A program made the position numbers and the translations under genes. The notes under the pieces were generated by a model. That model was not told the origin of the DNA. It did not search any database and was given only the letters and a program-made list of their open reading frames with translations. DNA of 64,000 bases from Raillietiella orientalis (taxonomy: Eukaryota), in assembly GCA_036172245.1 (NCBI GenBank), contig JAYWIR010000018.1:1-64000 (forward strand), in the 5' to 3' direction. Shown here one piece after another: positions 1 through 48,992 of the stretch (position 1 is the stretch's first letter; each line of letters starts with the position of its first letter).

Positions 1-3000
1 CTTTAACTTCAGTTTCCAGGTATCCTCTGTCCTTGCAGTTCATCTTTCTCAATGGGCAGTACACGACACTCACAGTAGATCCCCCCTTACGAATCGCAAA
101 TCCGTCCGACCCGACCACGAGAAAAGCAATTCAATGAACCTTGGAATCCCCGTTCCTCTTCACGGAATCCCTCTGCATCTTCCCAAATGGTCCCCGATGT
201 CCACGTCTAGGATGGGTGGATGGGGACTCTTGAATTCGGCAGCATCACCTAGGATTAAATAAAATATATCTTGTTTCTACAAATCCCTTTACCTTCGGTT
301 TCCAAGGATCCTCTATCCTCGCATAACTTCACTCTCCATGCGCAGTACACGACACTTACATTAGATCCCCCCTTTGGAGTCGCACATCCGTCCGACCCGA
401 CGACGAGAAAAGGAATCCAACTTACCTTGGAATCTCCGTTCCTCTTCAAGGAATTCCTCAACGTCTTCCCAAATGGTTCCCGATGTCCACGTCTGGAATA
501 AGATTAAGAGGATTTCTGAATTCGACAGCATAACCTAGGATTTATTCAAAAAAATTTATATCTGCAAATCCCATTACCTTCAGTTTCCCGGGATCCTTTG
601 TCCTGGCAGTTCGTCTTTCTCAATGGACAGTACACGACACTCACATTAGATCCCCCCTTAAAAATCGCAAATCCGTCCGACCCGACCACGAGAAAAGCAA
701 TTGAATGAACCTTGGAATCCCCGTTCCTCTTGTAGGGATACCTCGGCGTCTTCCCAAATGGTGCCCGATGTCCACGTCTAGGATGGGTGGAAGGGGACAC
801 TTCAATCCGGCAGCATCACCTAGGATTCAATAAAATAATTCTTGTATCTGCAAATCCCTTCACCTTCAGTATTCAGGGATCCTCTGTCCTTGCATTTCAT
901 CTTTGTCCGTGTGCAGCACACGACACTCACAGTACATCCCCCCTTACGAATCGAAAATCCGTCCGACCCGACGAATAGAAAAGGAATCGAACTTACCTTG
1001 GAATCTCCGTTCCTCTTCAAGGAATTTCTCAACGTCTTCCCAAATGGTCCCCGATGTCAACGTCTGGGATGGGAGGAAAAGGATTCATGAATTCGGCAGC
1101 ATAACCTAGGATTTAAGAAAAAAATTCGTGTATCGGGAAATCCCTTTACCTTCAGTTTCCAAGATTCCTCTGTCATCTCATATCTTCTCTCTCCATGGGC
1201 AGTGCACGACACACACAGTAGATCCCCCCTTACGAATCGCAAATCCGTCCGACCCGACGACGAGAAAAGCAATTGAATGTACCTTGGAATCCCCGTTCCT
1301 CTTCACGGAATCCCACTGCAACTTCCCAAATGGTCCCCGATGTACTCGACTTGGATGGCTGGAGGATGATTCTTCAATTCGGTATATAACCTAGGATTCA
1401 ATGAAAAAATTCTTGTATCTGCAAATCCCTTTACCTTCAGTTTCCAGGGATCTTCTGTCCTTGCGGTTCATCTTTCTCAATGGGCATTACACGACACTCA
1501 CAGTAGATCCCCCCTTACGAATCGCAACTCCGTTCGGCCCGACGACGAGAAAAGCAATTGAACTTACCTTGGAATCCCCGTTTTTTTTCACGGAATCCCA
1601 ATGCGTCTTCCCAAATGGTCCCCGATGTCCACGTCAAGGATGGGTGGAAGGGGACTCTTGAATTCGGCAGCATCACCTAGGATTTAATTAAATTCTTCTT
1701 GTTTCTTCAAATCCCTTTACCTTCGGTTTCCAAGGATCCTCTATCCTCGCATATCTTCTGTCTCCATGGGCAGTGCACGACACTCACAGTAGATCCCCCC
1801 TTACGAATCGCAAATGCGTCCGACCCGACGACGAGAAAAGCAATTGAACTTACCTTGGAATCCCCGTTTTTCTTCACGGAATCCCTCTGCGTCTTCCCAA
1901 ATGGTCCCCGATGTCCACGTCAAGGATGGGTGGAAGGGGACACTTGAATTCGGCAGCATCACCTAGGATTCAATAAAATACTTCTTGTTTCTACAAATCC
2001 CATTACCTTCGGTTTCCAAGGATCCTCTATCCTCGCATATCTTCTGTCTCTATGGGCAGTGCAGGACACTCACAGTAGATCCTCCCTTACGAATCGAAAA
2101 TCCGTCCGACCCGACGAATAGAAAAGGAATCGAACTTACCTTGGAATCTTCGTTCCTCTTCAAGGAATTCCTCAACGTCTTCCCAAATGGTCCCCGATGT
2201 CAACGTCTGGGATGGGAGGAAAAGGATTCATGAATTCGGCAGCATAACCTAGGATTTAAGAAAAAAATTCGTGTATCTGCAAATCCCTTTACCTTCAGTT
2301 TCCAAGATTCCTCTGTCATCTCATATCTTCTCTCTCCATGGGCAGTGCACGACACACACAGTAGATCCCCCCTTACGAATCGCAACTCCGTTCGGCCCGA
2401 CGACGAGAAAAGCAATTGAACTTACCTTGGAATCCCCGTTCCTCTTCACGGAAACCCTCTGCGTCTTCCCAAATGGTCCCCGATGTCCACGTCAAGGATG
2501 GGTGGAAGGGGACTCTTGAATTCGGCAGCATCACCTAGGATTTAATAAAATTCTTCTTGTTTCTTCAAATCCCTTTACCTTCGGTTTCCAAGGATCCTCT
2601 ATCCTCGCATATCTTCTGTCTCCATGGGCAGTGCACGACACTCACAGTAGATCCCCCCTTACGAATCGCAAATGCGTCCGACCCGACGACGAGAAAAGCA
2701 ATTCAACTTACCTTGGAATCCCCGTTTTTCTTCACGGAATCCCTCTGCGTCTTCCCAAATGGTCCCCGATGTCCACGTCAAGGATGGGTGGAAGGGGACA
2801 CTTGATTTCGGCAGCATCACCTGGGATTCAATAAACAATTTCTTGTATCTGCAAATCCCTTTACCTTCAGTTTCCAGGTATCCTCTGTCCTTGCAGTTCA
2901 TCTTTCTCAATGGGCAGTACACGACACCCACTTTAGATCCCTCCTTGGGAATCGCAAATCCGTCCGACCCGACGACGAGAAAAGCAATTGAACTTACCTT

Positions 3001-6000
3001 GGAATCCCCGTTCCTTTTCACGGAATCCCTCTGCAGCTTCCCAAATGGTACCCGATGTCCACCCCTGGGATGGGAGGAAGACGATTCCTGAATTCGGCAG
3101 CATAACCTGGGATCAATAAAATAATTCTTGTTCCTACAAATCCCTTTACCTTCGGTTTCCAAGGATCCTCTATCCTCGCATATCTTCTGTCTCCATGGGC
3201 AGTGCACGACACTCACATTAGGTCCCCCCTTAGGAGTCGCAAATCCGTCCGACCTGACGACGAGAAAAGGAATCGAACTTACCTTGGAATCTCCGTTCCT
3301 CTTCAAGGAATCCCTCAACGTCTTCCCAAATGGTCCCCGATGTCAACGTCTGGGATGGGAGGAAGAGAATTCATGAATTCGGCAGCATCACCTAGGATTC
3401 AATAAACAATTTCTTGTATCTGCAAATCCCTTTACCTTCAGTTTCCAGGTATCCTCTGTCCTTGCAGTTCATCTTTCTCAATGGGCAGTACACGACACTC
3501 ACAGTAGATCCCCCCTTACGAATCGCAAATCCGTCCGACCCGACGACGTGAAAAGCAATTGAACTTACCTTGGAATCCCCGTTCCTCTTCACGGAATCCC
3601 TCTGCATCTTCCCAAATGGTCCCCGATGTCCACGTCTAGGATGGGTGGAAGGGGACACTTGAATTCGGCAGCATCACCTAGGATTCAATAAACAATTTCT
3701 TGTATCTGCAAATCCCTTTACCTTCAGTTTCCAGGTATCCTCTGTCCTTGCAGTTCATCTTTCTCAATGGGCAGTACACGACACTCACAGTAGATCCCTC
3801 CTTGGGAATCGCAAATCCGTCCGACCCGACGACGAGAAAAGCAATTGAACTTACCTTGGAATCCCCGTTCCTCTTCACGGAATCCCTCTGCATCTTCCCA
3901 AATGGTCCCCGATGTCCACGTCCAGGATGGGTGGAAGGGGACACTTGAATTCGGCAGCATCACCTAGGATTCAATAAAATACTTCTTGTTTCTACAAATC
4001 CCTTTACCTTCGGTTTCCAAGGATCCTCTATCCTCACATATCTTCTGTCTCCATTGGCAGTGCACGACACTCACAGTAGATCCCCCCTTACGAATCGCAA
4101 ATCCGTCCGACCCGACGACGAGAAAAGCAATTGAACTTACCTTGGAATCCCCGTTCCTCTTCACGGAATCCCTCTGCATCTTCCCAAATGTTCCCCGATG
4201 TCCACGTCTAGGATGGGTGGAAGGGGACACTTGAATTCGGCAGCATCACCTAGGATTCAATAAACAATTTCTTGTATCTGCAAATCCCTTTACCTTCAGT
4301 TTCCAGGTATCCTCTGTCCTTGCAGTTCATCTTTCTCAATGGGAAGTACACGACACCCACTTTAGATCCCTCCTTGGGAATCGCAAATCCGTCCGACCCG
4401 ACGACGAGAAAAGCAATTGAACTTACCTTGGAATCCCCGTTCCTCTTCACGGAATCCCTCTGCATCTTCCCAAATGGTCCCCGATGTCCACGTCTAGGAT
4501 GGTGGAAGGGGACACTTGAATTCGGCAGCATCACCTAGGATTCAATAAACAATTTCTTGTATCTGCAAATCCCTTTACCTTCAGTTTCAAGGTATCCTCT
4601 GTCCTTGCAGTTCATCTCTCTCAATGGGCAGTACACGACACTCACAGTAGATCCCCCCTTACGAATCGCAAATCCGTCCGACCCGACGACGTGAAAAGCA
4701 ATTGAACTTACCTTCGAATCCCCGTTCCTCTTCACGGAATCCCTCTGCATCTTCCCAAATGGTCCCCGATGTCCACGTCTAGGATGGGTGGAAGGGGACA
4801 CTTGAATTCGGCAGCATCACCTAGGATTCAATAAACAATTTCTTGTATCTACAAATCCCTTTACCTTCAGTTTCCAGATATCCTCTGTCCTTGCAGTTCA
4901 TCTTTCCCAATGGGCAGTACACGACACCCACTTTAGATCCTTCCTTGGGAATCGCAAATCCGTCCGACCCGACCACGAGAAAAGCAATTGAACTTACCTT
5001 GGAATCCCCGTTCCTCTTCAAGGGATACCTCGGCGCCTTCCCAAATGGTCCCCGATGTCCACGTCTAGGATGGGTGGAAGGGGACTCTTCAATTCGGCAG
5101 CATCACCTAGGATACAATAAAATAATTCTTGTATCTGCAAATCCCTCCACCTTCAGTATCCAGGGATCCTCTGTCCTTGCATTTCATCTTTGTCCGTGTG
5201 CAGCACACGACACTCACATTAGTTCCCCCTTTACGAATCGCAAATCCGTTCGACCCGACGACGAGAAAAGCAATTGAAATTACCTTGGAATCCCCGTTCC
5301 TCTTCACGGAAACCCTCTGCGTCTTCCCAAATGGTCCCCGATGTCAACGTCTGGGATGGGAGGAAGAGTATTCATGAATTCGGCAGCATAACCTAGGATT
5401 TAAGAAAAAAATTCGTGTATCTGCAAATCCCTTTACCTTCAGTTTCCAAGATTCCTCTGTCATCTCATATCTTCTCTCTCCATGGGCAGTGCACGACACT
5501 CACAGTAGATCCCCCCTTACGAATCGCAAATCCGTCGGACCCGACGACGAGAAAAGCAATTGAACTTACCTCGGAATCCCCGTTCCTCTTCACGGAAACC
5601 CTCTGCGTCTTCCCAAATGGTCCCCGATGTCCACGTCAAGGATGGGTGGAAGGGGACTCTTGAATTCGGCAGCATCACCTAGGATTCAAGAAAATACTTC
5701 TTGTTTCTACAAATCCCTTTACCTTCGGTTTCCAAGGATCCTCTATCCTCGCATATCTTCTGTCTCCATGGGCAGTGCACGACACTCACAGTAGATCCCC
5801 CCTTACGAGTCGCAAATCCGTTTTGACCCGACGACGAGAAAAGCAATTGAACTTACCTTGGAATCCCCGTTCCTCTTCACGGAATCCCTCTGCATCTTCC
5901 CAAATGGTCCCCGATGTCCATGTCTATGATGGGAGGAAGACGATTCCTGAATTCTTCGGCATAACCTAGGATTTAATAAAAAAATTCTTGTATCTGCAAA

Positions 6001-9000
6001 TCCCTTTACCTTCAGTTTCCAGGGATCCTCTGTCCTTGCAGTTCATCTTTCTCAATGGGCAGTACACGACACTCACTTTAGATCCCCCCTTGGTTATCGC
6101 AAATCCTTCCGACCCGACGACGAGAAAAGCAATTGAACTTACCTTGGAATCCCCGTTCCTTTTCACGGAATCCCTCTGCAGCTTCCCAAATGGTACCCGA
6201 TGTCCACCCCTTGGATGGGAAAAAGACGATTTATGAATTCGGCAGCATAACCTGGGATCAATAAAATAATTCTTGTTTCTACAAATCCCTTTACCTTCGG
6301 TTTCCAAGGATCCTCTATCCTCGCATAACTTCTGTCTCCATGGGCAGTACACGACACTTACATTAGATCCCCCCTTAGGAGTCGCAAATCCGTCCGAACC
6401 GACGACGAGAAAAGGAATCGAACTTACCTTGTAATCTCCGTTCCTCTTCAAGGAATTCCTCAACGTCTTCTCAAATGGTCCCCGGTGTCAACGTCTGGGA
6501 TGGGAGGAAGAGGATTCATGAATTCGGCAGCATAACCTACGATTTAAGAAAAAAATTCGTGTATCTGCAAATCCCTTTACCTTCAGTTTCCAAGATTCCT
6601 CTGTCATCTCATATCTTCTCTCTCCATGGGCAGTGCACGACACTCACAGTAGATCCCCCCTTACGAATCGCAAATCCGTCCGACCCGACGACGAGAAAAG
6701 CAATTGAACTTACCTTGGAATCCCCGTTCTTCTTCACGGAATCCCTCTGCATCTTCCCAAATGGTCCCCGATGTCCACGTCTAGGATGGGTGGAAGGGGA
6801 CACTTCAATTCGGCAGCATCACCTAGGATTCAATAAACAATTTCTTGTATCTGCAAATCCCTTTACCTTCAGTTTCCAGGTATCCTCTGTCCTTGCAGTT
6901 CATCTTTCTCAATGGGCAGTACACGACACTCACAGTAGATCCCCCCTTACCAATCGCAAATCCGTCCGACCCGACTACGAGAAAAGCAATTGACCTTACC
7001 TTGGAATCCCCGTTTTTTTTCACGGAATCCCAATGCGTCTTCCCAAATGGTCCCCGATGTCTACGTCAAGGATGGGTGGAAGGGGACTCTTGAATTCGGC
7101 AGCATCACCTAGGATTCAATAAAATACTTCTTGTTTCTACAAATCCCTTTACCTTCGGTTTCCAAGGATCCTCTATCCTCGCATATCTTCTGTCTCCATG
7201 GGCAGTGCACGACACTCACAGTAGATCCCCCCTTACGAATCGCAAATGCGTCCGACCCGACGACGAGAAAAGCAATTGAACTTACCTTGGAATCCCCGTT
7301 TTTCTTCACGGAATCCCTCTGCGTCTTCCCAAATGGTCCCCGATGTCCACGTCAAGGATGGGTGGAAGGGGACACTTGAATTCGGCAGCATCACCTAGGA
7401 TTCAATAAACAATTTCTTGTATCTGCAAATCCCTTTACCTTCAGTTTCCAGGTATCCTCTGTCCTTGCAGTTCATCTTTCTCAATGGGCAGTACACGACA
7501 CTCACAGTAGATCCCCCCTTACGAATCGCAAATCCGTCCGACCCGACGACGAGAAAAGCAATTGAACTTACCTTGGAATCCCCGTTCCTCTTCACGGAAT
7601 CCCTCTGCATCTTCCCAAATGGTCCCCGATGTCCACGTCCAGGATGGGTGGAAGGGGACACTTGAATTCGGCAGCATCACCTAGGATTCAATAAAATACT
7701 TCTTGTTTCTACAAATCCCTTTACCTTCGGTTTCCAAGGATCCTCTATCCTCACATATCTTCTGTCTCCATGGGCAGTGCACGACACTCACAGTAGATCC
7801 CCCCTTACGAATCGCAAATCCGTCCGACCCGACGACGAGAAAAGCAATTGAACTTACCTTGGAATCCCCGTTTTTCTTCACGGAATCCCTCTGCGTCTTC
7901 CCAAATGGTCCCCGATGTCCACGTCAAGGATGGGTGGAAGGGGACTCTTGAATTCGGCAGCATCACCTAGGATTAAATAAAATATATCTTGTTTCTACAA
8001 ATCCCTTTACCTTCGGTTTCCAAGGATCCTCTATCATCGCATAACTTCTGTCTCCATGCGCAGTACACGACACTCACATTAGATCCCCCCTTAAAAATCG
8101 CAAATCCGTCGAACCCGACCACGAGAAAAGCAATTGAATGAACCTTGGAATCCCCGTTCCTCTTGTAGGGATACCTCGGCGTCTTCCCAAATGGTGCCCG
8201 ATGTCCACGTCTAGGATGGGTGGAAGGGGACTCTTCAATCCGGCAGCATCACCTAGGATTCAATAAAATAATTCTTGTATCTGCAAATCCCTTCACCTTC
8301 AGTATTCAGGGATCCTCTGTCCTTGCATTTCATCTTTGTCCGTGTGCAGCACACGACACTCACAGTACATCCCCCCTTACGAATCGCAAATCCGTCCGAC
8401 CCGACGACGTGAAAAGCAATTGAACTTACCTTGGAATCCCCGTTCCTCTTCACGGAATCCCTCTGCATCTTCCCAAATGGTCCCCGATGTCCTCGACTTG
8501 GATGGCTGGAGGATGATTCTTCAATTCGGTATATAACCTAGGATTCAATGAAAAAATTCTTGTATCTCCAAATCCCTTTACCTTCAGTTTCCAGGGATCT
8601 TCTGTCCTTGCGGTTCATCTTTCTCAATGAGCATTACACGACACTCACAGTAGATCCCCCCTTACGAATCGCAACTCCGTTCGGCCCGACGACGAGAAAA
8701 GCAATTGAACTTACCTTGGAATCCCCGTTCCTCTTCACGGAAACCCTCTGCGTCTTCCCAAATGGTCCCCGATGTCGACGTCAAGGATGGGTGGAAGGGG
8801 ACTCTTGAATTCGGCAGCATCACCTAGGATTTAATTAAATTCTTCTTGTTTCTTCAAATCCCTTTACCTTCGGTTTCCAAGGATCCTCTATCCTCGCATA
8901 ACTTCTGTCTCCATGGGCAGTGCACGACACTCACATTAGGTCCCCCCTTAGGAGTCGCAAATCCGTCCGACCTGACGACGAGAAAAGGAATCGAACTTAC

Positions 9001-12000
9001 CTTGGAATCTCCGTTCCTCTTCAAGGAATCCCTCAACGTCTTCCCAAATGGTCCCCGATGTCAACGTCTGGGATGGGAGGAAGAGAATTCATGAATTCGG
9101 CAGCATCACCTAGGATTCAATAAACAATTTCTTGTATCTGCAAATCCTTTAACCTTCAGTTTCCAGGTATCCTCTGTCCTTGCAGTTCACCTTTCTCAAT
9201 GGGCAGTACACGACACTCACAGTAGATCCCCCCTTACGAATCGCAAATCCGTCCGACCCGACGACGTGAAAAGCAATTGAACTTACCTTGGAATCCCCGT
9301 TCCTCTTCACGGAATCCCTCTGCATCTTCCCAAATGGTCCCCGATGTCCACGTCTAGGATGGGTGGAAGGGGACACTTGAATTCGGCAGCATCACCTAGG
9401 ATTCAATAAACAATTTCTTGTATCTGCAAATCCCTTTACCTTCAGTTTCCAAGATTCCTCTATCCTCGCATATCTTCTGTCTCCATGGGCAGTGCACGAC
9501 ACTCACAGTAGATCCCCCCTTACGAATCGCAAATCCGTCCGACCCGACGACGAGAAAAGCAATTGAACTTACCTTGGAATCCCCGTTCTTCTTCACGGAA
9601 TCCCTCTGCATCTTCCCAAATGGTCCCCGATGTCCACGTCTAGGATGGGTGGAAGGGGACACTTGAATTCGGCAGCATCACCTAGGATTCAATAAACAAT
9701 TTCTTGTATCTGCAAATCCCTTTACCTTCAGTTTCCAGGTATCCTCTGTCCTTGCAGTTCATCTTTCTCAATGGGCAGTACACGACACTCACAGTAGATC
9801 CCCCCTTACGAATCGCAAATGCGTCCGACCCGACTACGAGAAAAGCAATTGACCTTACCTTGGAATCCCCGTTTTTTTTCACGGAATCCCAATGCGTCTT
9901 CCCAAATGGTCCCCGATGTCCACGTCAAGGATGGGTGGAAGGGGACTCTTGAATTCGGCAGCATCACCTAGGATTCAATAAAATACTTCTTGTTTCTACA
10001 AATCCCTTTACCTTCGGTTTCCAAGGATCCTCTATCCTCGCATATCTTCTGTCTCCATGGGCAGTGCACGACACTCACAGTAGATCCCCCCTTACGAATC
10101 GCAAATGCGTCCGACCCGACGACGAGAAAAGCAATTGAACTTACCTTGGAATCCCCGTTTTTCTTCACGGAATCCCTCTGCGTCTTCCCAAATGGTCCCC
10201 GATGTCCACGTCAAGGATGGGTGGAAGGGGACACTTGAATTCGGCAGCATCACCTAGGATTCAATAAACAATTTCTTGTATCTGCAAATCCCTTTACCTT
10301 CAGTTTCCAGGTATCCTCTGTCCTTGCAGTTCATCTTTCTCAATGGGCAGTACACGACACTCACAGTAGATCCCCCCTTACGAATCGCAAATCCGTCCGA
10401 CACGACGACGAGAAAAGCAATTGAACTTACCTTGGAATCCCCGTTCCTCTTCACGGAATCCCTCTGCATCTTCCCAAATGGTCCCCGATGTCCACGTCCA
10501 GGATGGGTGGAAGGGGACACTTGAATTCGGCAGCATCACCTAGGATTCAATAAAATACTTCTTGTTTCTACAAATCCCTTTACCTTCGGTTTCCAAGGAT
10601 CCTCTATCCTCACATATCTTCTGTCTCCATGGGCAGTGCACGACACTCACAGTAGATCCCCCCTTACGAATCGCAAATCCGTCCGACCCGACGACGAGAA
10701 AAGCAATTGAACTTACCTTGGAATCCCCGTTCCTCTTCACGGAATCCCTCTGCATCTTCCCAAATGGTCCCCGATGTCCACGTCTAGGATGGGTGGAAGG
10801 GGACACTTGAATTCGGCAGCATCACCTAGGATTCAATAAACAATTTCTTGTATCTGCAAATCCCTTTACCTTCAGTTTCCAGGTATCCTCTGTCCTTGCA
10901 GTTCATCTTTCTCAATGGGCAGTACACGACACCCACTTTAGATCCCTCCTTGGGAATCGCAAATCCGTCCGACCCGACGACGAGAAAAGCAATTGAACTT
11001 ACCTTGGAATCCCCGTTCCTCTTCACGGAATCCCTCTGCATCTTCCCAAATGGTCCCCGATGTCCACGTCTAGGATGGGTGGAAGGGGACACTTGAATTC
11101 GGCAGCATCACCTAGGATTCAATAAACAATTTCTTGTATCTGCAAATCCCTTTACCTTCAGTTTCCAGGTATCCTCTGTCCTTGCAGTTCATCTTTCTCA
11201 ATGGGCAGTACACGACACTCACAGTAGATCCCCCCTTACGAATCGCAAATCCGTCCGACCCGACGACGTGAAAAGCAATTGAACTTACCTTCGAATCCCC
11301 GTTCCTCTTCACGGAATCCCTCTGCATCTTCCCAAATGGTCCCCGATGTCCACGTCTAGGATGGGTGGAAGGGGACACTTGAATTCGGCAGCATCACCTA
11401 GGATTCAATAAACAATTTCTTGTATCTGCAAATCCCTTTACCTTCAGTTTCCAGATATCCTCTGTCCTTGCAGTTCATCTTTCCCAATGGGCAGTACACG
11501 ACACCCACTTTAGATCCTTCCTTGGGAATCGCAAATCCGTCCGACCCGACCACGAGAAAAGCAATTGAACTTACCTTGGAATCCCCGTTCCTCTTCAAGG
11601 GATACCTCGGCGCCTTCCCAAATGGTCCCCGATGTCCACGTCTAGGATGGGTGGAAGGGGACTCTTCAATTCGGCAGCATCACCTAGGATACAATAAAAT
11701 AATTCTTGTATCTGCAAATCCCTCCACCTTCAGTATCCAGGGATCCTCTGTCCTTGCATTTCATCTTTGTCCGTGTGCAGCACACGACACTCACATTAGT
11801 TCCCCCCTTACGAATCGCAAATCCTTCCGACCCGACGACGAGAAAAGCAATTGAACTTACCTTGGAATCCCCGTTCCTCTTCACGGAATCCCTCTGCATC
11901 TTCCCAAATGGTCCCCGATGTCCACGTCTAGGATGGATGGAAGGGGACACTTGAATTCGGAAGCATCACCAAGATTCAATAAACAATTTCTTGTATCTGC

Positions 12001-21000: not shown

Positions 21001-24000
21001 CTTACCTTGGAATCCCCGTTCCTCTTCACGGAAACCCTCTGCGTCTTCCCAAATGGTCCCCGATGTCCACGTCAAGGATGGGTGAAAGGGGACTCTTGAA
21101 TTCGGCAGCATCACCTAGGATTCAAGAAAATACTTCTTGTTTCTACAAATCCCTTTACCTTCTTTTTCCAAGGATCCTCTATCCTCGCATATCTTCTGTC
21201 TCCATGGGCAGTGCACGACACTCACAGTAGATCCCCCCTTACGAATCGCAAATCCGTCCGACCCGACGACGAGAAAAGCAATTGAACTTACCTTGGAATC
21301 CCCGTTCCTCTTCACGGAAACCCTCTGCGTCTTCCCAAATGGTCCCCGATGTCCACGTCAAGGATGGGTGGAAGAGGACTCTTGAATTCGGCAGCATCAC
21401 CTAGGATTCAATAAAATACTTCTTGTTTCTACAAATCCCTTTACCTTCGGTTTCCAAGGATCCTCTATCCTCGCATATCTTCTGTCTCCATGGACAGTGC
21501 ACGACACTCACAGTAGATCCCCCCTTACGAGTCGCAAATCCGTTTTGACCCGACGACGAGAAAAGCAATTGAACTTACCTTGGAATCCCCGTTCCTCTTC
21601 ACGGAATCCCTCTGCATCTTCCCAAATGGTCCCCGATGTCCATGTCTATGATGGGAGGAAGACAATTCCTGAATTCTTCGGCATAACCTAGGATTTAATA
21701 AAAAAATTCTTGTATCTGCAAATCCCTTTACCTTCAGTTTCCAGGTATCCTCTGTCCTTGCAGTTCATCTTTCTCAATGGGCAGTACACGACACTCACTT
21801 TAGATCCCCCCTTAGGAGTCGCAAATCCGTCCGAACCGACGACGAGAAAAGGAATCGAACTTACCTTGGAATCTCCGTTCCTCTTCAAGGAATTCCTCAA
21901 CGTCTTCTCAAATGGTCCCCGATGTCAACGTCTGGGATGGGAGGAAGAGGATTCATGAATTCGGCAGCATCACCTAGGATTCAATAAACAATTTCTTGTA
22001 TCTGCAAATCCCTTTACCTTCAGTTTCCAGGTATCCTCTGTCCTTGCAGTTCATCTTTCTCAATGGGCAGTACACGACACTCACAGTAGATCCCTCCTTA
22101 CGAATCGCAAATCCGTCCGACCCGACGACGAGAAAAGCAATTGAACTTACCTTGGAATCCCCGTTCCTCTTCACGGAATCCCTCTGCAACTTCCCAAATG
22201 GTCCCCGATGTCCACGTCTAGGATGGGTGGAAGGGGACACTTGAATTCGGCAGCATCACCTAGGATTCAATAAACAATTTCTTGTATCTGCAAATCCCTT
22301 TACCTTCAGTTTCCAGGTATCCTCTGTCCTTGCAGTTCATCTTTCTCAATGGGCAGTACACGACACTCACAGTAGATCCCCCCTTACGAATCGCAAATCC
22401 GTCCGACCCGACGACGAGAAAAGCAATTGAACCTACCTTGGAATCCCCGTTCCTCTTCACGGAATCCCTCTGCATCTTCCCAAATGGTCCCCGATGTCCA
22501 CGTCTAGGATGGATGGAAGGGGACACTTGAATTCGGCAGCATCACCTAGGATTCAATAAACAATTTCTTGTATCTGCAAATCCCTTTACCTTCAGTTTCC
22601 AGGTATCCTCTGTCCTTGCAGTTCATCTTTCTCAATGGGCAGTACACGACACCCACTTTAGATCCCTCCTTGGGAATCGCAAATCCGTCCGACCCGACGA
22701 CGAGAAAAGCAATTGAACTTACCTTGGAATCCCCGTTCCTCTTCACGGAATCCCTCTGCATCTTCCCAAATGGTCCCCGATGTCCACGTCTAGGATGGGT
22801 GGAAGGGGACACTTGAATTCGGCAGCATCACCTAGGATTCAATAAACAATTTCTTGTATCTGCAAATCCCTTTACCTTCAGTTTCCAGGTATCCTCTGTC
22901 CTTGCAGTTCATCTTTCTCAATGGGCAGTACACGACACCCACTTTAGATCCTTCCTTGGGAATCGCAAATCCGTCCGACCCGACCACGAGAAAAGCAATT
23001 GAACTTACCTTGGAATCCCCGTTCCTCTTCAAGGGATACCTCGGCGCCTTCCCAAATGGTCCCCGATGTCCACGTCTAGGATGGGTGGAAGGGGACTCTT
23101 CAATTCGGCAGCATCACCTAGGATTCAATAAAATAATTCTTGTTTCTGCAAATCCCTTCACCTTCAGTATCCAGGGATCCTCTGTCCTTGCATTTCATCT
23201 TTGTCCGTGTGCAGCACACGACACTCACATTAGTTCCCCCTTTACGAATCGCAAATCCGTCGGACCCGACGACGAGAAAAGCAATTGAACTTACCTTGGA
23301 ATCCCCGTTCCTCTTCACGGAAACCCTCTGCGTCTTCCAAAATGGTCCCCGATGTCCACGTCAAGGATGGGTGGAAGAGGACTCTTGAATTCGGCAGCAT
23401 CACCTAGGATTCAATAAAATACTTCTTGTTTCTACAAATCCCTTTACCTTCGGTTTCCAAGGATCCTCTATCCTCGCATATCTTCTGTCTCCATGGACAG
23501 TGCACGACACTCACAGTAGATCCCCCCTTACGAGTCGCAAATCCGTTTTGACCCGACGACGAGAAAAGCAATTGAACTTACCTTGGAATCCCCGTTCCTC
23601 TTCACGGAATCCCTCTGCATCTTCCCAAATGGTCCCCGATGTCCATGTCTATGATGGGAGGAAGACGATTCCTGAATTCTTCGGCATAACCTAGGATTTA
23701 ATAAAAAAATTCTTGTATCTGCAAATCCCTTTACCTTCAGTTTCCAGGGATCCTCTGTCCTTGCAGTTCATCTTTCTCAATGGGCAGTACACGACACTCA
23801 CTTTAGATCCCCCCTTGGGAATCGCAAATCCTTCCGACCCGACGACGAGAAAAGCAATTGAACTTACCTTGGAATCCCCGTTCCTTTTCACGGAATCCCT
23901 CTGCAGCTTCCCAAATGGTACCCGATGTCCACCCCTTGGATGGGAAAAAGACGATTCCTGAATTCGGCAGCATAACCTGGGATCAATAAAATAATTCTTG

Positions 24001-27000
24001 TTTCTACAAATCCCTTTACCTTCGGTTTCCAAGGATCCTCTATCCTCGCATAACTTCTGTCTCCATGGGCAGTACACGACACTTACATTAGATCCCCCCT
24101 TAGGAGTCGCAAATCCGTCCGAACCGACGACGAGAAAAGGAATCGAACTTACCTTGGAATCTCCGTTCCTCTTCAAGGAATTCCTCAACGTCTTCTCAAA
24201 TGGTCCCCGATGTCAACGTCTGGGATGGGAGGAAGAGGATTCATGAATTCGGCAGCATAACCTAGGATTTAAGAAAAAAATTCGTGTATCTGCAAATCCC
24301 TTTACCTTCAGTTTCCAAGATTCCTCTGTCATCTCATATCTTCTCTCTCCATGGGCAGTGCACGACACTCACAGTAGATCCCCCCTTACGAATCGCAAAT
24401 CCGTCCGACCCGACGACGAGAAAAGCAATTAAACTTACCTTGGAATCCCCGCTCTTCACGGGTCTTCATCCCCGATGTCCACGTCAAGGATGGATGGACC
24501 TTCAATTCGGCAGCATCACCTAGGATTCAATAAAATTTTGTTTCATCCCTTTATTTCCAAGGATCCTCTATCCTCTCCATGGCACGACACTCACAGATCC
24601 CTCTTACGAATCGCAAATCCCCGACGACGAGAAGAGCAATTGAACTTACCTTGGAATCCCCGTTCCTCTTCACGGAATCCCTCTGCATCTTCCCAAATGG
24701 TCCCCGATGTCCACGTCTACGATGGGTGGAAAGGGACACTTGAATTCGGCAGCATCACCTAGGATTCAATAAACAATTTCTTGTATCTGCAAATCCCTTT
24801 ACCTTCAGTTTCCAGATATCCTCTGTCCTTGCAGTTCATCTTTCTCAATGGGCAGTACACGACACCCACTTTAGATCCTTCCTTGGGAATCGCAAATCCG
24901 TCCGACCCGACCACGAGAAAAGCAATTGAACTTACCTTGGAATCCCCGTTCCTCTTCAAGGGATACCTCGGCGCCTTCCCAAATGGTCCCCGATGTTTAC
25001 GTCTAGGATGGGTGGAAGGGGACTCTTCAATTCGGCAGCATCACCTAGGATTCAATAAAATAATTCTTGTTTCTGCAAATCCCTTCACCTTCAGTATCCA
25101 GGGATCCTCTGTCCTTGCATTTCATCTTTGTCCGTGTGCAGCACACGACACTCACATTAGTTCCCCCTTTACGAATCGCAAATCCGTCGGACCCGACGAC
25201 GAGAAAAGCAATTGAACTTACCTTGGAATCCCCGTTCCTCTTCACGGAAACCCTCTGCGTCTTCCAAAATGGTCCCCGATGTCCACGTCAAGGATGGGTG
25301 GAAGAGGACTCTTGAATTCGGCAGCATCACCTAGGATTCAATAAAATACTTCTTGTTTCTACAAATCCCTTTGCCTTCAGTTTCCAGATATCCTCTGTCC
25401 TTGCAGTTCATCTTTCTCAATGGGCAGTACACGACACCCACTTTAGATCCTTCCTTGGGAATCGCAAATCCGTCCGACCCGACCACGAGAAAAGCAATTG
25501 AACTTACCTTGGAATCCCCGTTCCTCTTCAAGGGATACCTCGGCGCCTTCCCAAATGGTCCCCGATGTCCACGTCTAGGATGGGTGGAAGGGGACTCTTC
25601 AATTCGGCAGCATCACCTAGGATTCAATAAAATAATTCTTGTTTCTGCAAATCCCTTCACCTTCAGTATCCAGGGATCCTCTGTGCTTGCATTTCATCTT
25701 TGTCCGTGTGCAGCACACGACACTCACATTAGTTCCCCCTTCACGAATCGCAAATCCGTTCGACCCGACGACGAGAAAAGCAATTGAACTTACCTTGGAA
25801 TCCCCTTTCCTTTTCACGGAATCCCTCTGCAACTTCCCAAATGGTCCCCGATGTCCACGTCTGGGATAGGAGGAAGACGATTCCTGAATTCGGCAGCATA
25901 ACCTCGAATCAATGAAATAATTCTTGTTTCTACAAATCCCTTTACCTTCGGTTTCCAGGGATCCTCTATCCTCGCATAACTTCTGTCTCCATGGACAGTG
26001 CACGACACTCACAGTAGATCCCCCCTTACGAATCGCAAATCCGTCCGACCCGACGACGAGAAAAGCAATTGAACTTACCTTGGAATCCCCGTTCCTCTTC
26101 ACGTTATCCCTCTGCATCTTCCCAAATGGTCCCCGATGTCCACGTCTAGGATGGGTGGAAGGGGACACTTGAATTCGCATCATCACCTAGGATTCAAGAA
26201 ACAATTTCTTGTATCTGCAAATCCCTTTACCTTCAGTTTCCAGGTATCCTCTGTCCTTGCAGTTCATCTATCTCAATGGGCAGTACACGACACCCACTTT
26301 AGATCCTTCCTTGGGACTAGCAAATCCGTCCGACCCGACGACGAGAAAAGCAATACAACTTACCTTGGAATCCCCGTTCCTCTTCACGGAATCCCTCTGC
26401 GTCTTCCCAAATGGTCCCCGATGTCCACGTCAAGAATGGGTGGAAGGGGACTCTTGAATTCGGCAGCATCACCTAGGATTCAATAAAATAATTCTTGTTT
26501 CTACAGATCCCTTTACCTTCGGTTTCCAAGGATCCTCTATCCTCGCATAACTTCTGTTTCCATGGGCAGTACACGACACTTACATTAGATCCCCCCTTAG
26601 GAGTCGCAAATCCGTCCGACCCGACGACGAGAAATGGAATCCTACTTACCTTGGAATCTCCGTTCCTCTTCAAGGAATTCCTCAACGTCTTCCCAAATGG
26701 TTCCCGATGTCCACGTCTGGAATAAGATTAAGAGGATTTCTGAATTCGACAGCATAACCTAGGATTTAATAAAAAAAATTTATATCTGCAAAACCCATTA
26801 CCTTCAGTTTCCAGGGATCCTTTGTCCTGGCAGTTCGTCTTTCTCAATGGACAGTACACGACACTCACATTAGATCCCCCCTTAAAAATCGCAAATCCGT
26901 CCGACCCGACCACGAGAAAAGCAATTGAATGAACCTTGGAATCCCCGTTCCTCTTGTAGGGATACCTCGGCGTCTTCCCAAATGGTCCCCGATGTCCTCG

Positions 27001-29613
27001 TCTTGGATGGCTGGAGGATGATTCTTCAATTCGGTATATTACCTAGGATTCAATGAAAAAATTCTTGTATCTGCAAATCCCTTTACCTTCAGTATCCTGG
27101 GATCTTCTGTCCTTGCGGTTCATCTTTCTCAATGGGCAGTACACGACACTCACAGTAGATCCCCCCTTACGAATCGCTAATCCGTACGACCCGACGACGA
27201 GAAAAGCAATTGAACTTACCTTGGAATCCCCGTTCCTCTTCACGGAATCCCTCTACATCTTCCCAAATGGTCCCCGATGTCCACGTCTGGGATGGGTGGA
27301 AGGGTACACTTGAATTCGGCAGCATCACCTAAGATTCAATAAACAATTTCTTGTATCTGCAAATCCCTTTACCTTCAGTTTCCAGGTATCCTATGTCCTT
27401 GCAGTTCATCTTTCTCAATGGGCAGTGCACGACACTCACAGTAGATCCCCCCTTACGAATCGCAATTCCGTCCGACCCGACGACGAGAAAAGCAATTGAA
27501 CTTACCTTGGAATCCCCGTTCCTCTTCACGGAATCCCTCTACATCTTCCCAAATGGTCCCCGATGTCCACGTCTGGGATGGGTGGAAGGGGACACTTGAA
27601 TTCGGCAGCATCACCTAGGATTCAATAAACAATTTCTTGCATCTGCAAATCCCTTTACCTTCAGTTTCCAGGTATCCTCTGTCCTTGCAGTTCATCTTTC
27701 TCAATGGGCAATACACGACACCCACTTTAGATCCCTCCTTGGGAATCGCAAATCCGTCCGACCCGACGACGAGAAAAGCAATTGAACTTACCTTGGAATC
27801 CCCGTTCCTCTTCAAGGGATACCTAGGCGCCTTCCCAAATGGTCCCCGATGTCCACGTCTAGGATGGGTGGAAGGGGACTCTTCAAATCGGCAGCATCAC
27901 CTAGGATTCAATAAAATAATTCTTGTATCTGCAAATCCCTTCACCTTCAGTATTGAGGGATCCTCTGTCCTTGCATTTCATCTTTGTCCGTGTGCAGCAC
28001 ACGACACTCACACTAGTTCCCCCTTCACGAATCGCAAATCCGTTCGACCCGACGACGAGAAAAGCAATTGAACTTACCTTGGAATCCCCTTTCCTTTTCA
28101 CGGAATCCCTCTGCAACTTCCCAAATGGTCCCCGATGTCCACGTCTGGTATAGGAGGAAGACGATTCCTGAATTCGGCAGCATAACCTCGAATCAATGAA
28201 ATACTTCTTGTTTCTACAAATCCCTTTACCTTCGGTTTCCAAGGATCCTCTATCCTCGCATATCTTCTGTCTCCATGGGAAGTGCACCACACTTACAGTA
28301 GATCCCCCCTTACGAATCGAAAATCCGTCCGACCCGACGACGAGAAAAGCAATGGAACTTACCTTGGAATCCCCGTTATTCTTCACGGAATCCCTCTGCG
28401 TCTTCCCAAATGGTCCCCGATGTCCACGTAAAGGATGGGTGGAAGGGGACTCTTGAATTCGGCAGCATCACCTATGATTCAATAAAATACTTCTTGTTTC
28501 TACAAATCCCTTTACCTTCGGGTTCCAAGGATCCTCTATCCTCGCATATCTTCTGTCTCCATGGGCAGTGCACGACACTCACAGTAGATCCCCCCTTACG
28601 AATCGCAAATGCGTCCGACCCGACGACGAGAAAAGCAATTGAACTTACCTTGGAATCCCCGTTATTCTTCACGGAATCCCTCTGCGTCTTCCCAAATGGT
28701 CCCCCATGTCCACGTCTAGGATGGGTGGAAGGGGACACTTGAACTCGGCAGCATCACCTAGGATTCAATAAAATACTTCTTGTTTCTACAAATCCCTTTA
28801 CCTTCGGTTTCCAAGGATCCTCTATCCTCGCATATCTTCTGTCTCCATGGGCAGTGCACGACACTCACAGTAGATCCCTCTTACGAATCGCAAATCCGTC
28901 CGACCCGACGACGAGAAAAGCAATTGAACTTACCTTGGAATCCCCGTTCTTCTTCACGGAATCCCTCTGCGTCTTCCCAAATGGTCCCCGATGTCCACGT
29001 CTAGGATGGGTGGAAGGGGACACTTGAATTCGGCAGCATCACCTAGGATTCAATAAAATACTTCTTGTTTCTACAAATCCCTTTACCTTCGGTTTCCAAG
29101 GATCCTCTATCCTCGCATATCTTCTGTCTCCATGGGCAGTGCACGACACTCCCTCTAGATCCCCCTTTACGAATCGCAAATCCGTCCGACCCGATGACGA
29201 GAAAAGCAATTGAACTTACCTTGGAATCCCCGTTTTTCTTCACGGAATCCCTCTGCGTCTTCCCAAATGGTCCCCGATGTCCACGTCTAGGATGGGTGGA
29301 AGGGGACTCTTGAATTCGGCAGCATCACCTAGGATTCAATAAACAAATTCTTGTATCTGCAAATCCCTTCACCTTCAGTATCGAGGGATCCTCTGTCCTT
29401 GCAGTTCGTCTTTCTCAAAGGACAGTACAAGACACTCACATTAGTTCCCCCTTTAGGAATCGCAAATCCGTTCGACCCGACGACGAGAAAAGCTATGGAA
29501 CTTACCTTGGAATCCACGTTCCTCTTCACGGAATACCTCTGCGGCTTTCCAAATGCTCCCCGATGTCCATATCTGGGATTGGAGGAAGGGGATTCCTGAA
29601 TTCGGCAGCATAA
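1..29613. repeat. Tandem satellite DNA array, 286-bp monomer, about 104 copies (runs off the left edge of the window)
   Basis: The motif GAATTCGGCAGCATCACCTAGGATT recurs with a 285-287 bp period (CTAGG at 249, 820, 1106 ... 19685, 19971 ... 29043, 29329). Most monomers carry one EcoRI and one AvrII site. The repeated 82/88-aa ORFs in the track simply mirror this period. Confidence 0.99.
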
Positions 29614-30466
29614 CTAGGATTGAATTCTAGAATTGCTATATATTGGAATCCTTTTACCTTCGGTTCCCAGGGATTTTCATTCCTTGCAGTTTATCTTTCT
29701 CCATGGTGTGTACACGAGACTCTCATTAGATGCCCCCGTCTGAATTTCACATCCTTCCGACTCGACGACGAGAAAAGCAATTGCGCTCACCTTGAATGCT
29801 ACGTTTTCCTTCTTGGGATCGCTTGGTTTTTTCTCAAATGTTTCCCGTTGTCCACGTGTGTAATCAGAGGAGGAGGATTCCTTTGTACGGCAGGATATTC
29901 TAGAACTTTATATTAGAATTCTTGAATCTTTCATTCGTTTTTCTTGCGGTTCTCGAAAATCCTCCATCATGGCCGTTCGTTCTTCCTCTTCGTGGTCACA
30001 CTGCATTCTCTTTTCTGCCTCTATATGGTAGAGCAGTCTTCTTCGACACGACAACCTGAAATGCAAAGGCAGTCACAGAAGAATTTACGTTCTTCTTCTG
30101 GGTATCCGTCAGCGTCATCTCAAATGTTCTCGGGCGTCTCCGTCTTTGAGCAGAAGAAGAGGAATCTGGGTCCGGCTGGATGACCTAGAATTGAACATTT
30201 TAATTCTTGTACCTTCAATTCGTTTTGTTTGCGGTTTTTGTTCTTACTGTATGATTGCCGTTCATCCTTCGTGATCGTTATCTCGCTACAGTTGCTTTCC
30301 TCCTCAACGAATTGTTCTCCTCCTCGCTGGTGCCGAGGACATAAAAAGGGAAATTCTCTTACCGATGAATCCATCTTCTTCTTCGTTGGATGCCTTTCTA
30401 TGCTCGTTCCTTCTTTCGGAAGTCGCCGATGGAGTTTGCGTGTTCATGGGATAGGTTGTTTGTATC
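29614..30466. repeat. About three progressively degenerate terminal satellite monomers
   Basis: 29614-29899 still shows TTTACCTTCGGTT and CGACGACGAGAAAAGCAATTG. 30121-30212 (CAAATGTTCTCGGGCGTC...GATGACCTAGAATTGAAC...AATTCTTGTA) aligns to the monomer junction. 30345-30400 aligns to AAAAGCAATTGAACTTACCTTGGAATCCCCGTTCCTCTTC at the expected ~286-bp register. Confidence 0.8.
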
Positions 30467-33240
30467 TAAAATGTGAGTGGGAGGGTGGAATGGATCATTA
30501 GAAATTTACTGACTTTTTCGTTTTTTTCTTGGAATGTCCTCTCTGGACGGGGTCCTCGTTTCTTCATCTTTCCGAATGTCCTTTTGTTCCGTGTGTTTGT
30601 AGCAAGCCAGTCCTCACTTTCTTTCTGCTTCTTCGGATTTTGGCAATCGTGGACGACAGAGGGGAGGTGGACGCGGAAGAATTTTTGCGCAAGGGTTCGG
30701 ACTTTGGTCTGGTTACCAGTTTGGCCGCTGCTCTTTTTTCTCGTGGGTTCCGTGGAAGGGGGCTTTGGCTCCGTGGTTCGCAAAGGTCACCCTCGAGTTC
30801 TAATTGTGATAGCGATTGTTTATATTTTATTTTTCTTTTTTCCCCTCCTCCTTACTTTTCCCCCTTTTCCGTGTGGAACCATAATTTTGATGTGAACTGA
30901 TGTTGGCGTTTTTTGTTTGCGGTGTCTCTGTTTTGCTGTCTGTCTTTTTGTGGTTGCTGAGCGCTATTCATAAGTGAGTCGCTTACGTACGTTGGGATCT
31001 CAACAGCTTCGAAGTCGGTGGCATTCACTATTCTCTGAGGTTCTACATTGGTACTTACGCACTTAGGTACCTCAGTGGGTTGCTTCGTGGAAGACAGATT
31101 TTCGGGAATTTGGAGCGGATTGTAATTTTTGCTGGAAGGTTGTTTGTTGTTGTTCCTCTTTTCTTCCAGATGAAGCTCCTCTTCTTCCTGCTTTAAATGC
31201 TGAAGGGGAAAGTTGCTGTTGTGTTTTCTTGCTCGCGTTTCGTTATCTTTCCCCGCTTTTCATATTTCATAAGTCCCTCTGTTTTACTAGCGAATCTCTT
31301 TTGAAGCCATTACCGGCGGTGTTGCACTCTGGATGTGAATTCTTCTGCTTTTTTCAAAGCGCAAAACTCTAACATTTCATCTTTCCTTTTGGTGCAGCTT
31401 GATTTAAACTGAAACCTAACCTGCGCTTATCTAACCTCTTCTGATCTTTGATTATTTTACCATGTTGTCCTTCTGCGTGCGAGGCTGTCCCGATCTATAC
31501 GCACCCGTACATTGTGATGTTTAGGTCCCTTCCTGGGGTCTTCACCCTCTTTTAGTTTCGCGAATGTCCACCTTTTTCTATGATCTCCTTGCTTCGCACA
31601 TTTCCAGTCTCTCCCTGACTTCCTGGAGAACAAGTTGCCCGCTGGTCTGCTGACTTCTTACCCCGATTTCGCGTTCACACCTCCGCGACTCCGCTCCCGT
31701 GTGTTCGGCGTCCATCTTTCCAGGACGTTGCCTTCGGCGTTGAGCCATCAGGAGTTCCATACTTGTATTTTCGACGTACCCCTTTGGGTTTCCATGTGCA
31801 TCCTTCGGCTTTGAAACCGCACATCTGCTGCCTCCTTGGAATGAGTGGAAGTCTTACTTCTTCCAGGGGCCTTTTGGTGTTTGTATTGTGCACGTTGAAT
31901 TCTGGAAACTCACCCGATGTGTCCTTTGATTTCTCGGTAATTTTATTTCCCCTTTTTGTCATCAGTTTTTTAGATTACTGCATTCCCATCTTCGAGTGGC
32001 ACATTCACCCATGCCCGACTGTCTCTCCGCCCCTGAATTCATTTGGCGTCCGATTTGAGTTAGAAAGTCGTACCTTGAGATATTCGCAGTTCAAATGTGT
32101 GCGTTCCAAGGTCCAGTAACTCCCTCCTCTTTATGTCCCGGAGTGCCGAATTTTTCCATCTCATGTCCCGCGTTCCCATTCGCAATGTTCTTATTCGTGT
32201 GTTTCTCTATGGAATCCCTGAATGCCGCCCAAGTTCGCATTTCGCAAATGGAATATCTGAATTTTTGCGTTTTCTTACAAATTTCCGCTCCCCCGAAGAC
32301 GCTCTTTGGTGCTCGTTCCAGGTGTCCTACGGAGGAACGTCTTTTCCGTTCGAACGTTTCCTTTTGCGATTCATTCTGCTTCTCTCTTCATTAGCGTTTT
32401 TACGATTGAATCTCAAAGTTCTCACCTGCATCTTCTTACAAACGAATTCGAACCCCCCGTTCGCGTTGGTGGACTAAATTGCTCGATTCCCTTCTTCCTT
32501 TCCTTTTTGGGCCCACTTATTCCTCAAGCATGCAACCTCGCGCGATGTCTTTTGCGCTCAAAGAGTTGAGCCGCGGAAATGCAATTGCTTGCTTCCGTGT
32601 GACCACTGTCGAAAGTGGACAGCCTGGGGCAAGAGGACCTTAGTTCGGTTTTCGGATCCAAATCTGCTCGCTGCGCCTCGAATTTCCTGAGCTAACCGTT
32701 TCACCAATGCATTCCCTCCTTTTGAGTTCGCGCCTCATCCAGATGCAATTCCTGGTCTGCTTCTGCATCCCCACTTGGATAGTTCCCTCGATTTCTATGT
32801 TCAGCTCAGCAGTTCTAAATATTTGCCATTTCTCTTTGCTGGCAAGCAGTCTTCTAAATTCCATCCTTCGTATGCTTTTGGTACTGCACCTTCGTTCGAA
32901 CTGATTGGAAATTCTTCATTGTTGTAGCAGGTGAAAATTTTTCCGAGATCGGATGATGCGTTGCTAGGTTTCCTTTCTTTGTTCTGCCGTTCTTGTCTTG
33001 CTGTTCCTTTTTTCCAAGTCTTCGATCATCATTATTATTATTAGCATTATATTATCGCAATTACTATCGATGTTACGATTATTATTGCCGCTGTGGTACT
33101 TGCCGTTATTATTATTATGATTCTCATTATTGGAATCACCGTTATGATCATTACTGCCGTTATTATCGTTATGATTGCTGCTGAATTCACTTGAGATGCG
33201 CGACAAAGCGCGTTTTGCTTACCACTCGGAGCTTACCTCT
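30363..33240 (-). pseudogene. Putative degenerate multi-exon minus-strand locus (unidentified) reading toward the satellite
   Basis: The minus strand is purine-rich and has several strong donors followed by AG 39-48 nt later (30513-30466, ~31661-31623, ~31912-31870, ~32073-32033). ORF 30783-30514 splices in frame to exon 30465-30363. In-frame stops are present elsewhere and no homology was recognised. Confidence 0.25.
33025..33183. repeat. Degenerate (ATT/ATC/GTT)n trinucleotide low-complexity tract
   Basis: ATCATCATTATTATTATTAG...GTTATTATTATTATGATT; translates as an Asn-rich run on the minus strand. Confidence 0.75.
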
Positions 33241-34979: not shown

Positions 34980-35595
34980 GGAAATCATGAGGAAGGAAGA
35001 TGAACAAAAAATAAACAAAAAAAGTACTTTAATGTTTGGGTGTGAGGGAAGCGAGAGGATCACGGTTTGTCCCCTCGTGGGCCCTGCACCTTCTCAAACA
35101 TGCCGCTCAAGTCCCTCCTGGTTGCGTCTCTGGTGCGGACATCGCACCGGAATCCTCAGGAACGAAAACTCGAAGGATGTGACTTCTCTGTTATTTTAGC
35201 GGGACTTCGAGACGTCGTGGTTCCGCGGACGCAGCTATAAAAATTTCGATCGCCGCGCAGGTGACATCCCACCACACCCGAAGAGAGGCATCCGAAAGGT
35301 TTTCCTCCAGGCAGCTCAGGGACGCGGTGCAGCATCCCGACGCACTCCAGAAGTTGGTGCGGTAGGGTTTCCCTTTTGCCCCACCTGTCACACTCTGGGC
35401 TGCACCTCCCCTGGTCCAGCGGTGGAGGCGAGCGTCGCACGGAATGTCCCGATGCTGTCACTTCGAGGGAAGCACGGAGCTGTCGCAGAACACCACGGGG
35501 ATCCCACATGTTGCAGCGTTACGAGATTCGTCCAGCGGAGAAGCCCTTTGGGGAAGTTGGTGGGGGCTGGAATGGCAGCCATATGATGTAGCACG
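34980..35595 (-). mobile_element. Old 3' fragment of a non-LTR retrotransposon (C-terminal CCHC zinc finger plus 3' UTR), related to the element at 48993-49930
   Basis: The minus strand gives ARLHRWTRG/CSPECDRWGKRETLPHQLLECVG versus ARLSHWTLGRLDAHCTECGETEAFPHLLIECVA in the 49-kb copy. Both share AACCGTGATCC at the ORF end, followed by a C-rich then T-rich UTR. Confidence 0.75.
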
Positions 35596-37439: not shown

Positions 37440-37683
37440 GTTCGAGCTTGGCGGGCGACGCTACAGCGTAGCTCGTTGCCCCGTAGACGGCGGCAGGACC
37501 GTGCGCGCACGCGCAGAACAAGGGCCCCGCCATTGGCTAATCATCCTCCAGGATCGGTTGTCACGGAAACCTCTTTGCAAGAGAATTCGGCAAGAGAGTG
37601 TCCGAGCGGACGCGTTGTACTCGCGTTGCTGAGAAACCCGAGCGATAACGTAAAAAGAAATTTATTTTCTTTTCGCGATGCCT

Positions 37684-48944: not shown

Positions 48945-48992
48945 CATTCTATGTAGTGCAAATATCAAAGTTGAATTCTTAAAGTTCGCGCC
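48945..48992 (+). repeat. Left copy of a 48-bp target-site duplication
   Basis: CATTCTATGTAGTGCAAATATCAAAGTTGAATTCTTAAAGTTCGCGCC, identical to 49931-49978. Confidence 0.9.

Follow-up and report, generated by a model that had tools for sequence, protein, structure and literature searches.

The window analysed here comprises positions 1-64,000 of the forward strand of contig JAYWIR010000018.1, from the Raillietiella orientalis assembly GCA_036172245.1. Its left part is occupied by a tandem array of 286-bp monomers, followed by a series of edge copies (E0 to E4, counted outward) and by a unique flank; a stretch lacking long open reading frames (ORFs), several genes and long interspersed nuclear element (LINE) sequences lie further to the right (Table 1). 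On the minus strand the monomer is divided by four splice-like sites into an interval of 44 nt (donor 1 to acceptor 1), a block of 109 nt, an interval of 54 nt (donor 2 to acceptor 2) and a block of 79 nt. A first interpretation, made from the letters of the DNA (hereafter the sequence-only reading), had suggested that this monomer may be an amplified exon-intron cassette derived from the 3' end of a spliced gene or long non-coding RNA (lncRNA). Splice sites were scored with a position weight matrix (PWM) trained on the 15 introns of the INTS8 gene of the window, and donors of at least 5.5 bits were called strong. Host introns are very short, 12 of these 15 measuring 39-48 nt.

Table 1. Features of the window, ordered by position; the four monomer segments are given for a representative stretch of the array.
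Feature	Position	Strand	Remarks
Core array of 286-bp monomers, extending past the left window end	1..29372	minus	about a hundred copies in a row
109-nt block (monomer positions 45-153)	19576..19684	minus	acceptor 1 to donor 2; no codon periodicity
44-nt interval (monomer positions 1-44)	19685..19728	minus	donor 1 5.5 bits, acceptor 1 6.0 bits; 30% GC; best intron candidate
79-nt block (monomer positions 208-286)	19729..19807	minus	holds third donor
54-nt interval (monomer positions 154-207)	19808..19861	minus	donor 2 12.0 bits (perfect 9-nt), acceptor 2 1.9 bits (weak); 48% GC
Edge copy E1, 86%	29373..29657	minus	donors 1 and 2 and acceptor 1 retained; acceptor 2 shifted by one base
Edge copy E2, 72%	29658..29943	minus	acceptor 1 (29900) and donor 2 (29790) retained; donor 1 and acceptor 2 lost
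Edge copy E3, 60%	29944..30228	minus	acceptor 1 (30185) and GT of donor 2 retained; donor 1 and acceptor 2 lost
Edge copy E4, ~50%, last recognisable (z 6.9)	30229..30515	minus	donor at 30362; 48-nt interval 30513-30466
Unique flank, A-rich, CpG-undepleted	30530..33600	minus	may be the 5' part of a transcription unit, either non-coding or decayed; 19 strong donors (1 on plus); no spliced ORF
GC-rich, CpG-undepleted stretch without long ORF	35200-43000	plus	TATA-like motif at 35236
Degenerate 19-bp minisatellite	38085-38470	plus	start just behind a strong donor near 38095; not called by Tandem Repeats Finder
INTS8, 979-aa ORF	43419-47195	minus	15 introns of 39-193 nt, two of 44 nt, 3/15 AAG acceptors; Pfam TPR_INTS8; human INTS8 chain
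Exact 48-bp direct repeat around a ~940-bp LINE 3' fragment	48945-48992 and 49931-49978		weak zf-RVT match
Full-length U4 small nuclear RNA (snRNA) match directly ahead of a LINE	51758-57250	plus	Rfam 64 bits; ORF1-like, endonuclease-like and reverse transcriptase frames, frameshifted
POLE3-like gene	58433-58550 (intron)	plus	apparent 118-nt GC-AG intron
Gene 3' end	62900-64000	minus	two 51-nt introns of 43-49% GC

The array and its edge copies

Tandem Repeats Finder recovers a period of 286 from position 1 to about 29.8 kb, with monomers arranged head to tail over many kilobases, and diverged copies reach as far as 30515, in agreement with the array described in the sequence-only reading. In an alignment of 105 monomer rows, core monomers differ from one another by 11% on average and form irregular higher-order blocks; the core is homogenised, with 11 identical monomer pairs and a median nearest-neighbour difference of 1%. 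Head-to-tail monomers, a homogenised core, blocks of variants and diverged edges are all features by which satellites are recognised. The register of the array is broken by a single deletion junction (24528-24802) with two truncated monomers. Contigs from a DNA sequencing run, which may itself be the source of the window, sum to a depth of about 270-320 on the monomer against 2-4 on pieces of the flank, a ratio that does not provide a copy number; the 51 contigs of the same run that fall on positions 29087-36000 showed no joints.

No sign was found that the two halves of the monomer are duplicates of each other (193/1000 shuffles). A recurring GRATYY motif, present in nine copies, was considered as the source of the four splice sites and set aside, since 5 of 60 shuffles did as well once the choice of motif was allowed for, which is not significant. 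A metagenome locus matched by a 21-nt conserved stretch of the monomer was likewise dismissed as a chance match, its flanks having no similarity.

At the right edge, identity to the consensus drops stepwise outward, from 94% in E0 to 86% in E1, 72% in E2, 60% in E3 and about 50% in E4. Two of the four sites are kept through this series, namely acceptor 1 in E0-E3 and the GT of donor 2 in E0-E4. The other two are not: E2 and E3 lack donor 1, and none of E0-E4 has acceptor 2 at the homologous position, so that the earlier statement that the diverged copies keep their splice sites applies to half of them. The GT of donor 2 in E3 stands in a context scoring -1.3. Such a pattern would suit one exon of 108-109 nt and one intron of 177 nt per unit at least as well as a model with two introns, a suggestion qualified by the base rate of survival through E1-E3 (5/16 for GT and 2/22 for AG). 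Beyond E4, past 30.5 kb, older copies were not detected, the best nhmmer match between flank and monomer having an E value of 0.68.

Edge copies E2 and E3 depart from the consensus at 28-40% of bases, yet show just 0 and 1 single-base gaps, and their substitutions lean towards A on the minus strand. The near-absence of insertions and deletions could reflect a length constraint or a low indel rate.

Splice-like signals of the monomer

The minus strand of the monomer contains three donors and one good acceptor, and its plus strand no donor above 3.2 bits. Within 1-29372 this amounts to 275 strong donors on the minus strand and 3 on the plus strand, which, as copies of one monomer, are not independent counts. 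The two intervals proposed in the sequence-only reading (19728-19685 and 19861-19808) do begin with GT and end with AG, and the features to which they had been likened, 44-nt introns and AAG acceptors, occur in two and three of the 15 INTS8 introns, respectively. The third donor, at monomer position 220 (window position 19795; 6.3 bits), had been overlooked; its GT is retained in 100 of the 101 full-length core monomers on which all conservation counts are based (the two deletion-bearing junction copies near 24.5 kb, E1 and E2 being excluded). The 44-nt interval fits the mode of host intron length and the low GC content of host introns. The 54-nt interval is the least variable segment of the monomer. 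Contrary to its first description, the 109-nt block is hardly rich in purines (57%, against 55% in the 44-nt interval).

The two best non-overlapping donor-acceptor pairs of the monomer sum to 25.4 bits. With intron lengths of 38-56 nt, this score is reached by 2 of 2000 dinucleotide and 6 of 2000 trinucleotide shuffles, and with lengths of 36-70 nt by 7 and 20, respectively; in the comparison with shuffled monomers that had been proposed as a check, the real sequence therefore comes out ahead. Among sliding 286-nt windows, at least 25.4 bits are attained by 21 of 71 on the sense strand of INTS8, which is the training gene, by 2 of 25 on the sense strand of an independent gene at 62.5-64 kb, and by none of the remaining 1164 window-strands. 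Host-type donor-acceptor pairs at host intron length are thus present in the monomer, and this is firm for the 44-nt interval and driven by the donor for the 54-nt interval.

These scores also bear on the main rival explanation, in which the array is an ordinary satellite that grew from arbitrary DNA, homogenisation spread its chance splice-like motifs, and the donor-rich flank stems from some decayed gene or element that lies alongside without any connection to it. The excess hinges on one perfect donor, with a chance of 113/20000 per monomer, and fades when the range of lengths excludes 54 nt (86 and 137 of 2000 shuffles for 38-50 nt; 86-156 of 2000 overall). Of 5000 shuffled monomers, 179 contain three strong donors. 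This explanation is considered somewhat unlikely, for reasons that lie mainly in the flank.

The splice dinucleotides are intact at all four sites in 90 of the 101 monomers. The sequence-only reading had noted that GT and AG stay while neighbouring bases change, and the two exceptions that it listed both exist: acceptor 1 is lost near 11970, and GT is changed to GC at 25374 (near 25372). It had missed that 10 monomers have an altered acceptor 2, with an AG one base further on. Special conservation of the dinucleotides is not established. As many as 136 of the 286 monomer positions vary in at most one of the 101 monomers; the eight splice bases have 4 variant alleles, the mean being about 0.96 per site, and their conservation does not significantly exceed that of matched positions (p 0.056 when matched by base and 0.061 by dinucleotide). 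The PWM-weighted loss of score at the splice sites is not significantly below expectation either (p 0.10-0.18). The suggested comparison of GT/AG with other monomer positions has thus given conservation not significantly above the average.

A cassette with an invariable pattern of two exons and two introns, maintained by selection and yielding a regular spliced RNA of 188-nt units, is distinctly improbable. It would be in keeping with the many monomers having all four dinucleotides, and three of the four variant types would be tolerable in principle (GT to GC; the one-base shift of acceptor 2). All conservation tests lean in its favour (p 0.056-0.18), but none is significant. What survives in the edge copies is acceptor 1 together with donor 2, not the two pairs of the sequence-only reading; acceptor 2 is weak (1.9 bits), the third donor would compete with the other two, and the 54-nt interval, at 48% GC, lies above the 16-40% of INTS8 introns, two held-out introns having 43-49%. 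This strong form of the sequence-only reading is unsupported.

The unique flank and its surroundings

The one-sided excess of 5' splice-site motifs is not confined to the monomer and extends through 3 kb of unique sequence beyond it. On the minus strand of the flank, the 19 strong donors compare with 6.9 expected from dinucleotide shuffles (reached in 0 of 1000) and 8.8 from trinucleotide shuffles (1 of 1000), and an untrained motif, GTRAG, is found 14 times where 4.6 are expected (0 of 1000 shuffles). A single strong donor is present on the plus strand, for an expectation of 4.6. The sense strand of the LINE, which is A-rich as well, has no excess of donors. In a scan with windows of fixed size (124 window-strands, 25 shuffles per window), the minus-strand window at 30.5 kb ranks first (z 6.6), and INTS8 windows do not exceed a z of 4.8. 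From 26 to 35 kb, across the edge of the array, minus-strand donors have a density of 3-10 per kb and plus-strand donors of 0-2. The minus-strand bias thus begins in the array and persists up to about 35 kb, beyond which there is a lean to the plus strand that lacks significance. Behind the flank donors, acceptors at 38-56 nt are modestly better than at random positions (p 0.023) and T content increases (p 0.042).

The flank provides the main argument against an ordinary satellite with a chance neighbour. Its signal lies outside the coordinates covered by the sequence-only reading, is on the same strand as that of the monomer and is the strongest in the window, and the donor density continues over the edge. 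The proposed origin of the array in a spliced gene or lncRNA has gained support from these donors insofar as it implies a unit on the minus strand. No recognisable similarity was found that would make the flank a decayed copy of the LINE of the window. Perfect heat-shock elements are absent from 29.3-43 kb; near the flank, elements with one mismatch are the only ones present.

The 286-bp unit contains no protein frame. Codon periodicity is absent from both core and edge copies, stops are frequent in every frame, and exhaustive models with one and two exons gave short open frames only. A Pfam search of 33 ORFs returned nothing significant for array or flank, a protein atlas gave no usable match for the E1 ORF, and a 108-aa ORF of the flank had 0 matches in a representative protein library. 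Compared with frame-perturbed controls, the flank yields no spliced ORF in excess, while INTS8 surpasses all 20. An array of repeated coding exons for a giant repetitive protein, dumpy- or silk-like, is largely refuted by these results and very improbable. An open frame spans most of E0 and E1 (93-94 codons), an in-frame exon of 39 nt (monomer positions 115-153) can be drawn with donor 2, and the edge copies are nearly free of indels, all of which would suit such an array; variation in the 39-nt exon, on the other hand, hits all codon positions. The PIGSFEAST repeat of dumpy is reportedly a coding exon-intron array under concerted evolution in which the reading frame is kept. Tandem homogenisation of an exon-intron-like unit and the survival of old copies at the edge are points of resemblance with the present array, whose unit, however, keeps no reading frame.

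Tandem genes for a spliced-leader (SL) RNA, with donor 2 as the trans-splicing donor, offer another possible source of about a hundred tandem copies with a perfect, conserved donor. AAG precedes donors 1 and 2, in accordance with the WWG before the donor that is included among SL RNA criteria in the part of PMC3795323 available. The other properties of the monomer leave this origin a minimal probability. The Sm motif AT4-6G is found behind either donor in 0 of 101 monomers, ATTTG being all that is present; the monomer has no stable fold (z 0.12; best local z -1.8), and three conserved SL stem-loops were sought in it and not found. It matches no Rfam family, an SL match being absent even at an E value of 10. 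Stems drawn by hand are broken by variants, none of which alters both sides, and the sequence ahead of donor 2 is purine-rich and variable. Over the whole window, Rfam at gathering scores reports U4 only. Comparison of the monomer with the region upstream of U4 was negative, but it is a weak one because this U4 may itself belong to a LINE, as its head.

The arrangement at 51758-57250 may be either a LINE with an snRNA as its head or the result of a LINE insertion behind a U4 gene, and the 48-bp direct repeat is read as an unusually long target-site duplication. The GC-rich stretch right of the flank, with 22 plus-strand donors against 16 expected (not significant), could be another non-coding unit, directed away from the flank; around 35330-35410 it has a weak tblastn match to a LINE fragment (E 0.004). 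A search with one INTS8 exon for longer proteins gave no match. The POLE3-like gene has homologues in many animals, with at most 70% identity. The gene at the right end of the window presumably encodes an FF-domain protein of the TCERG1 kind, to judge by its appearance.

Origin of the array and comparison with known systems

The best explanation, to which a probability of about one half is given, is that the minus strand harbours a non-coding (or long-decayed) unit of RNA polymerase II, from whose distal part one 286-bp piece was amplified in tandem to form the array. As drawn from the sequence, this unit would begin near 34-35 kb, where the strand bias of donors switches side, pass through the donor-rich flank and enter the repeats. 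Unequal crossing-over or conversion could have multiplied and homogenised one segment, so that every monomer came to hold three donors and one good acceptor while E1-E4 stayed behind as old layers at the edge. If the unit were still read, it would give a long nuclear RNA that may be bound by the U1 small nuclear ribonucleoprotein (U1 snRNP) about every 100 nt, and such loading would be expected to suppress early polyadenylation and favour chromatin retention. Splicing would probably be heterogeneous, removing either the 44-nt intron or the 177 nt from donor 2 to the next acceptor 1, with no fixed pattern of two introns. In mammals, according to the available passages of the respective papers, U1 sites are enriched in the sense direction and suppress early polyadenylation (PMC4085477), and they keep non-coding RNA on chromatin (10.1101/310433). 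For a human satellite, such telescripting figures as speculation only in the accessible part of PMC9909926.

A number of observations weigh against this explanation, and several of them are at the same time points in favour of an ordinary satellite. Selection on the splice sites of the monomer is not detectable, GT and AG being conserved no better than average. The notion of one unit rests on adjacency and common strand bias, since no similarity to the monomer can be detected in the flank past E4. Decay at the edge is a general property of satellites (PMC11663013, available passages), of which irregular higher-order blocks are also typical. The observed to expected ratio of CpG is 0.9-1.0 in array and flank and 0.3 in INTS8, so that array and flank are unlike a methylated housekeeping gene body. 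AATAAA is not significantly depleted in the flank (2 against 3.4 expected, p 0.33); the array contains 78 on the plus strand and 2 on the minus strand, a bias that would suit a minus-strand unit, but this rarity on the minus strand is expected by chance because just 6% of shuffled monomers hold one. The method has limits of the same bearing. The matrix comes from 15 introns of one gene, and two held-out introns score 3.1 and -0.8 bits, the latter a poor value; the cut-off for strong donors is identical to the score of donor 1. The limits of the flank, 30530-33600, were set after the sequence had been read, a weakness mitigated by the scan with windows of fixed size. The monomer was chosen from a genome with many satellites, and its p-value carries no correction for that choice.

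The proposed layout recalls that of hsr-omega, a lncRNA locus of Drosophila in which, according to the available part of 10.1101/695486, a unique, non-coding, intron-bearing proximal part is followed by a long tandem run of locus-confined repeats of about 280 bp. The likeness would be one of layout, drawn here from the donor excess and the lack of a spliced ORF in the flank. In hsr-omega, as described in the same part of that source, the intron sits in the unique part and has ultra-conserved junctions, whereas here there are donors inside every repeat. Hallmarks of hsr-omega include the omega intron junctions, ORF-omega, mir-4951, nonamer motifs and a stress-inducible, hnRNP-binding nuclear RNA. 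The array is not classed with this locus, its splice signals lying within the repeats and the resemblance being one of layout.

Other known systems share single aspects of the array. Satellites with degenerate edges, as presented in the accessible passages of PMC11663013 and PMC10048060, likewise have head-to-tail monomers, higher-order blocks and stepwise divergence at the edge; the array differs from them in a one-sided, gene-like density of splice signals that continues into a unique flank. The origins of satellites named in the available part of PMC10048060 are transposable elements and not spliced host sequence. Non-coding RNAs that are rich in U1 sites and retained on chromatin, and the axis of U1 and polyadenylation signals (10.1101/310433 and PMC4085477, as far as these sources were accessible), show a similar enrichment of donors on one strand, with donors outnumbering good acceptors. 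Those systems are mammalian, and the putative U1 sites of the array differ in having been multiplied by tandem amplification. Among the listings obtained from the open-access literature, no description was found of a short-monomer satellite made of an exon-intron segment.

A more far-reaching possibility is that the locus encodes a living architectural lncRNA outside Drosophila, with a repeat tail of more than 30 kb derived from its own exon-intron segment. Each 286-nt unit would then offer three docking sites for U1 and a micro-intron, the nascent RNA would act as a multivalent scaffold for U1 and the spliceosome, and splicing of the units could tune its length and nuclear retention. This version is regarded as unlikely.

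If no RNA exists, the array would be an ordinary satellite with a plausible genic origin. If an RNA is confirmed, it would be a rare case of a satellite with its source still attached, in which graded copies lead back to unique, spliced host sequence. Spliced non-coding genes would then join the known sources of satellite monomers, and the locus would represent a convergent, hsr-omega-like layout with the U1 sites in the repeats themselves.

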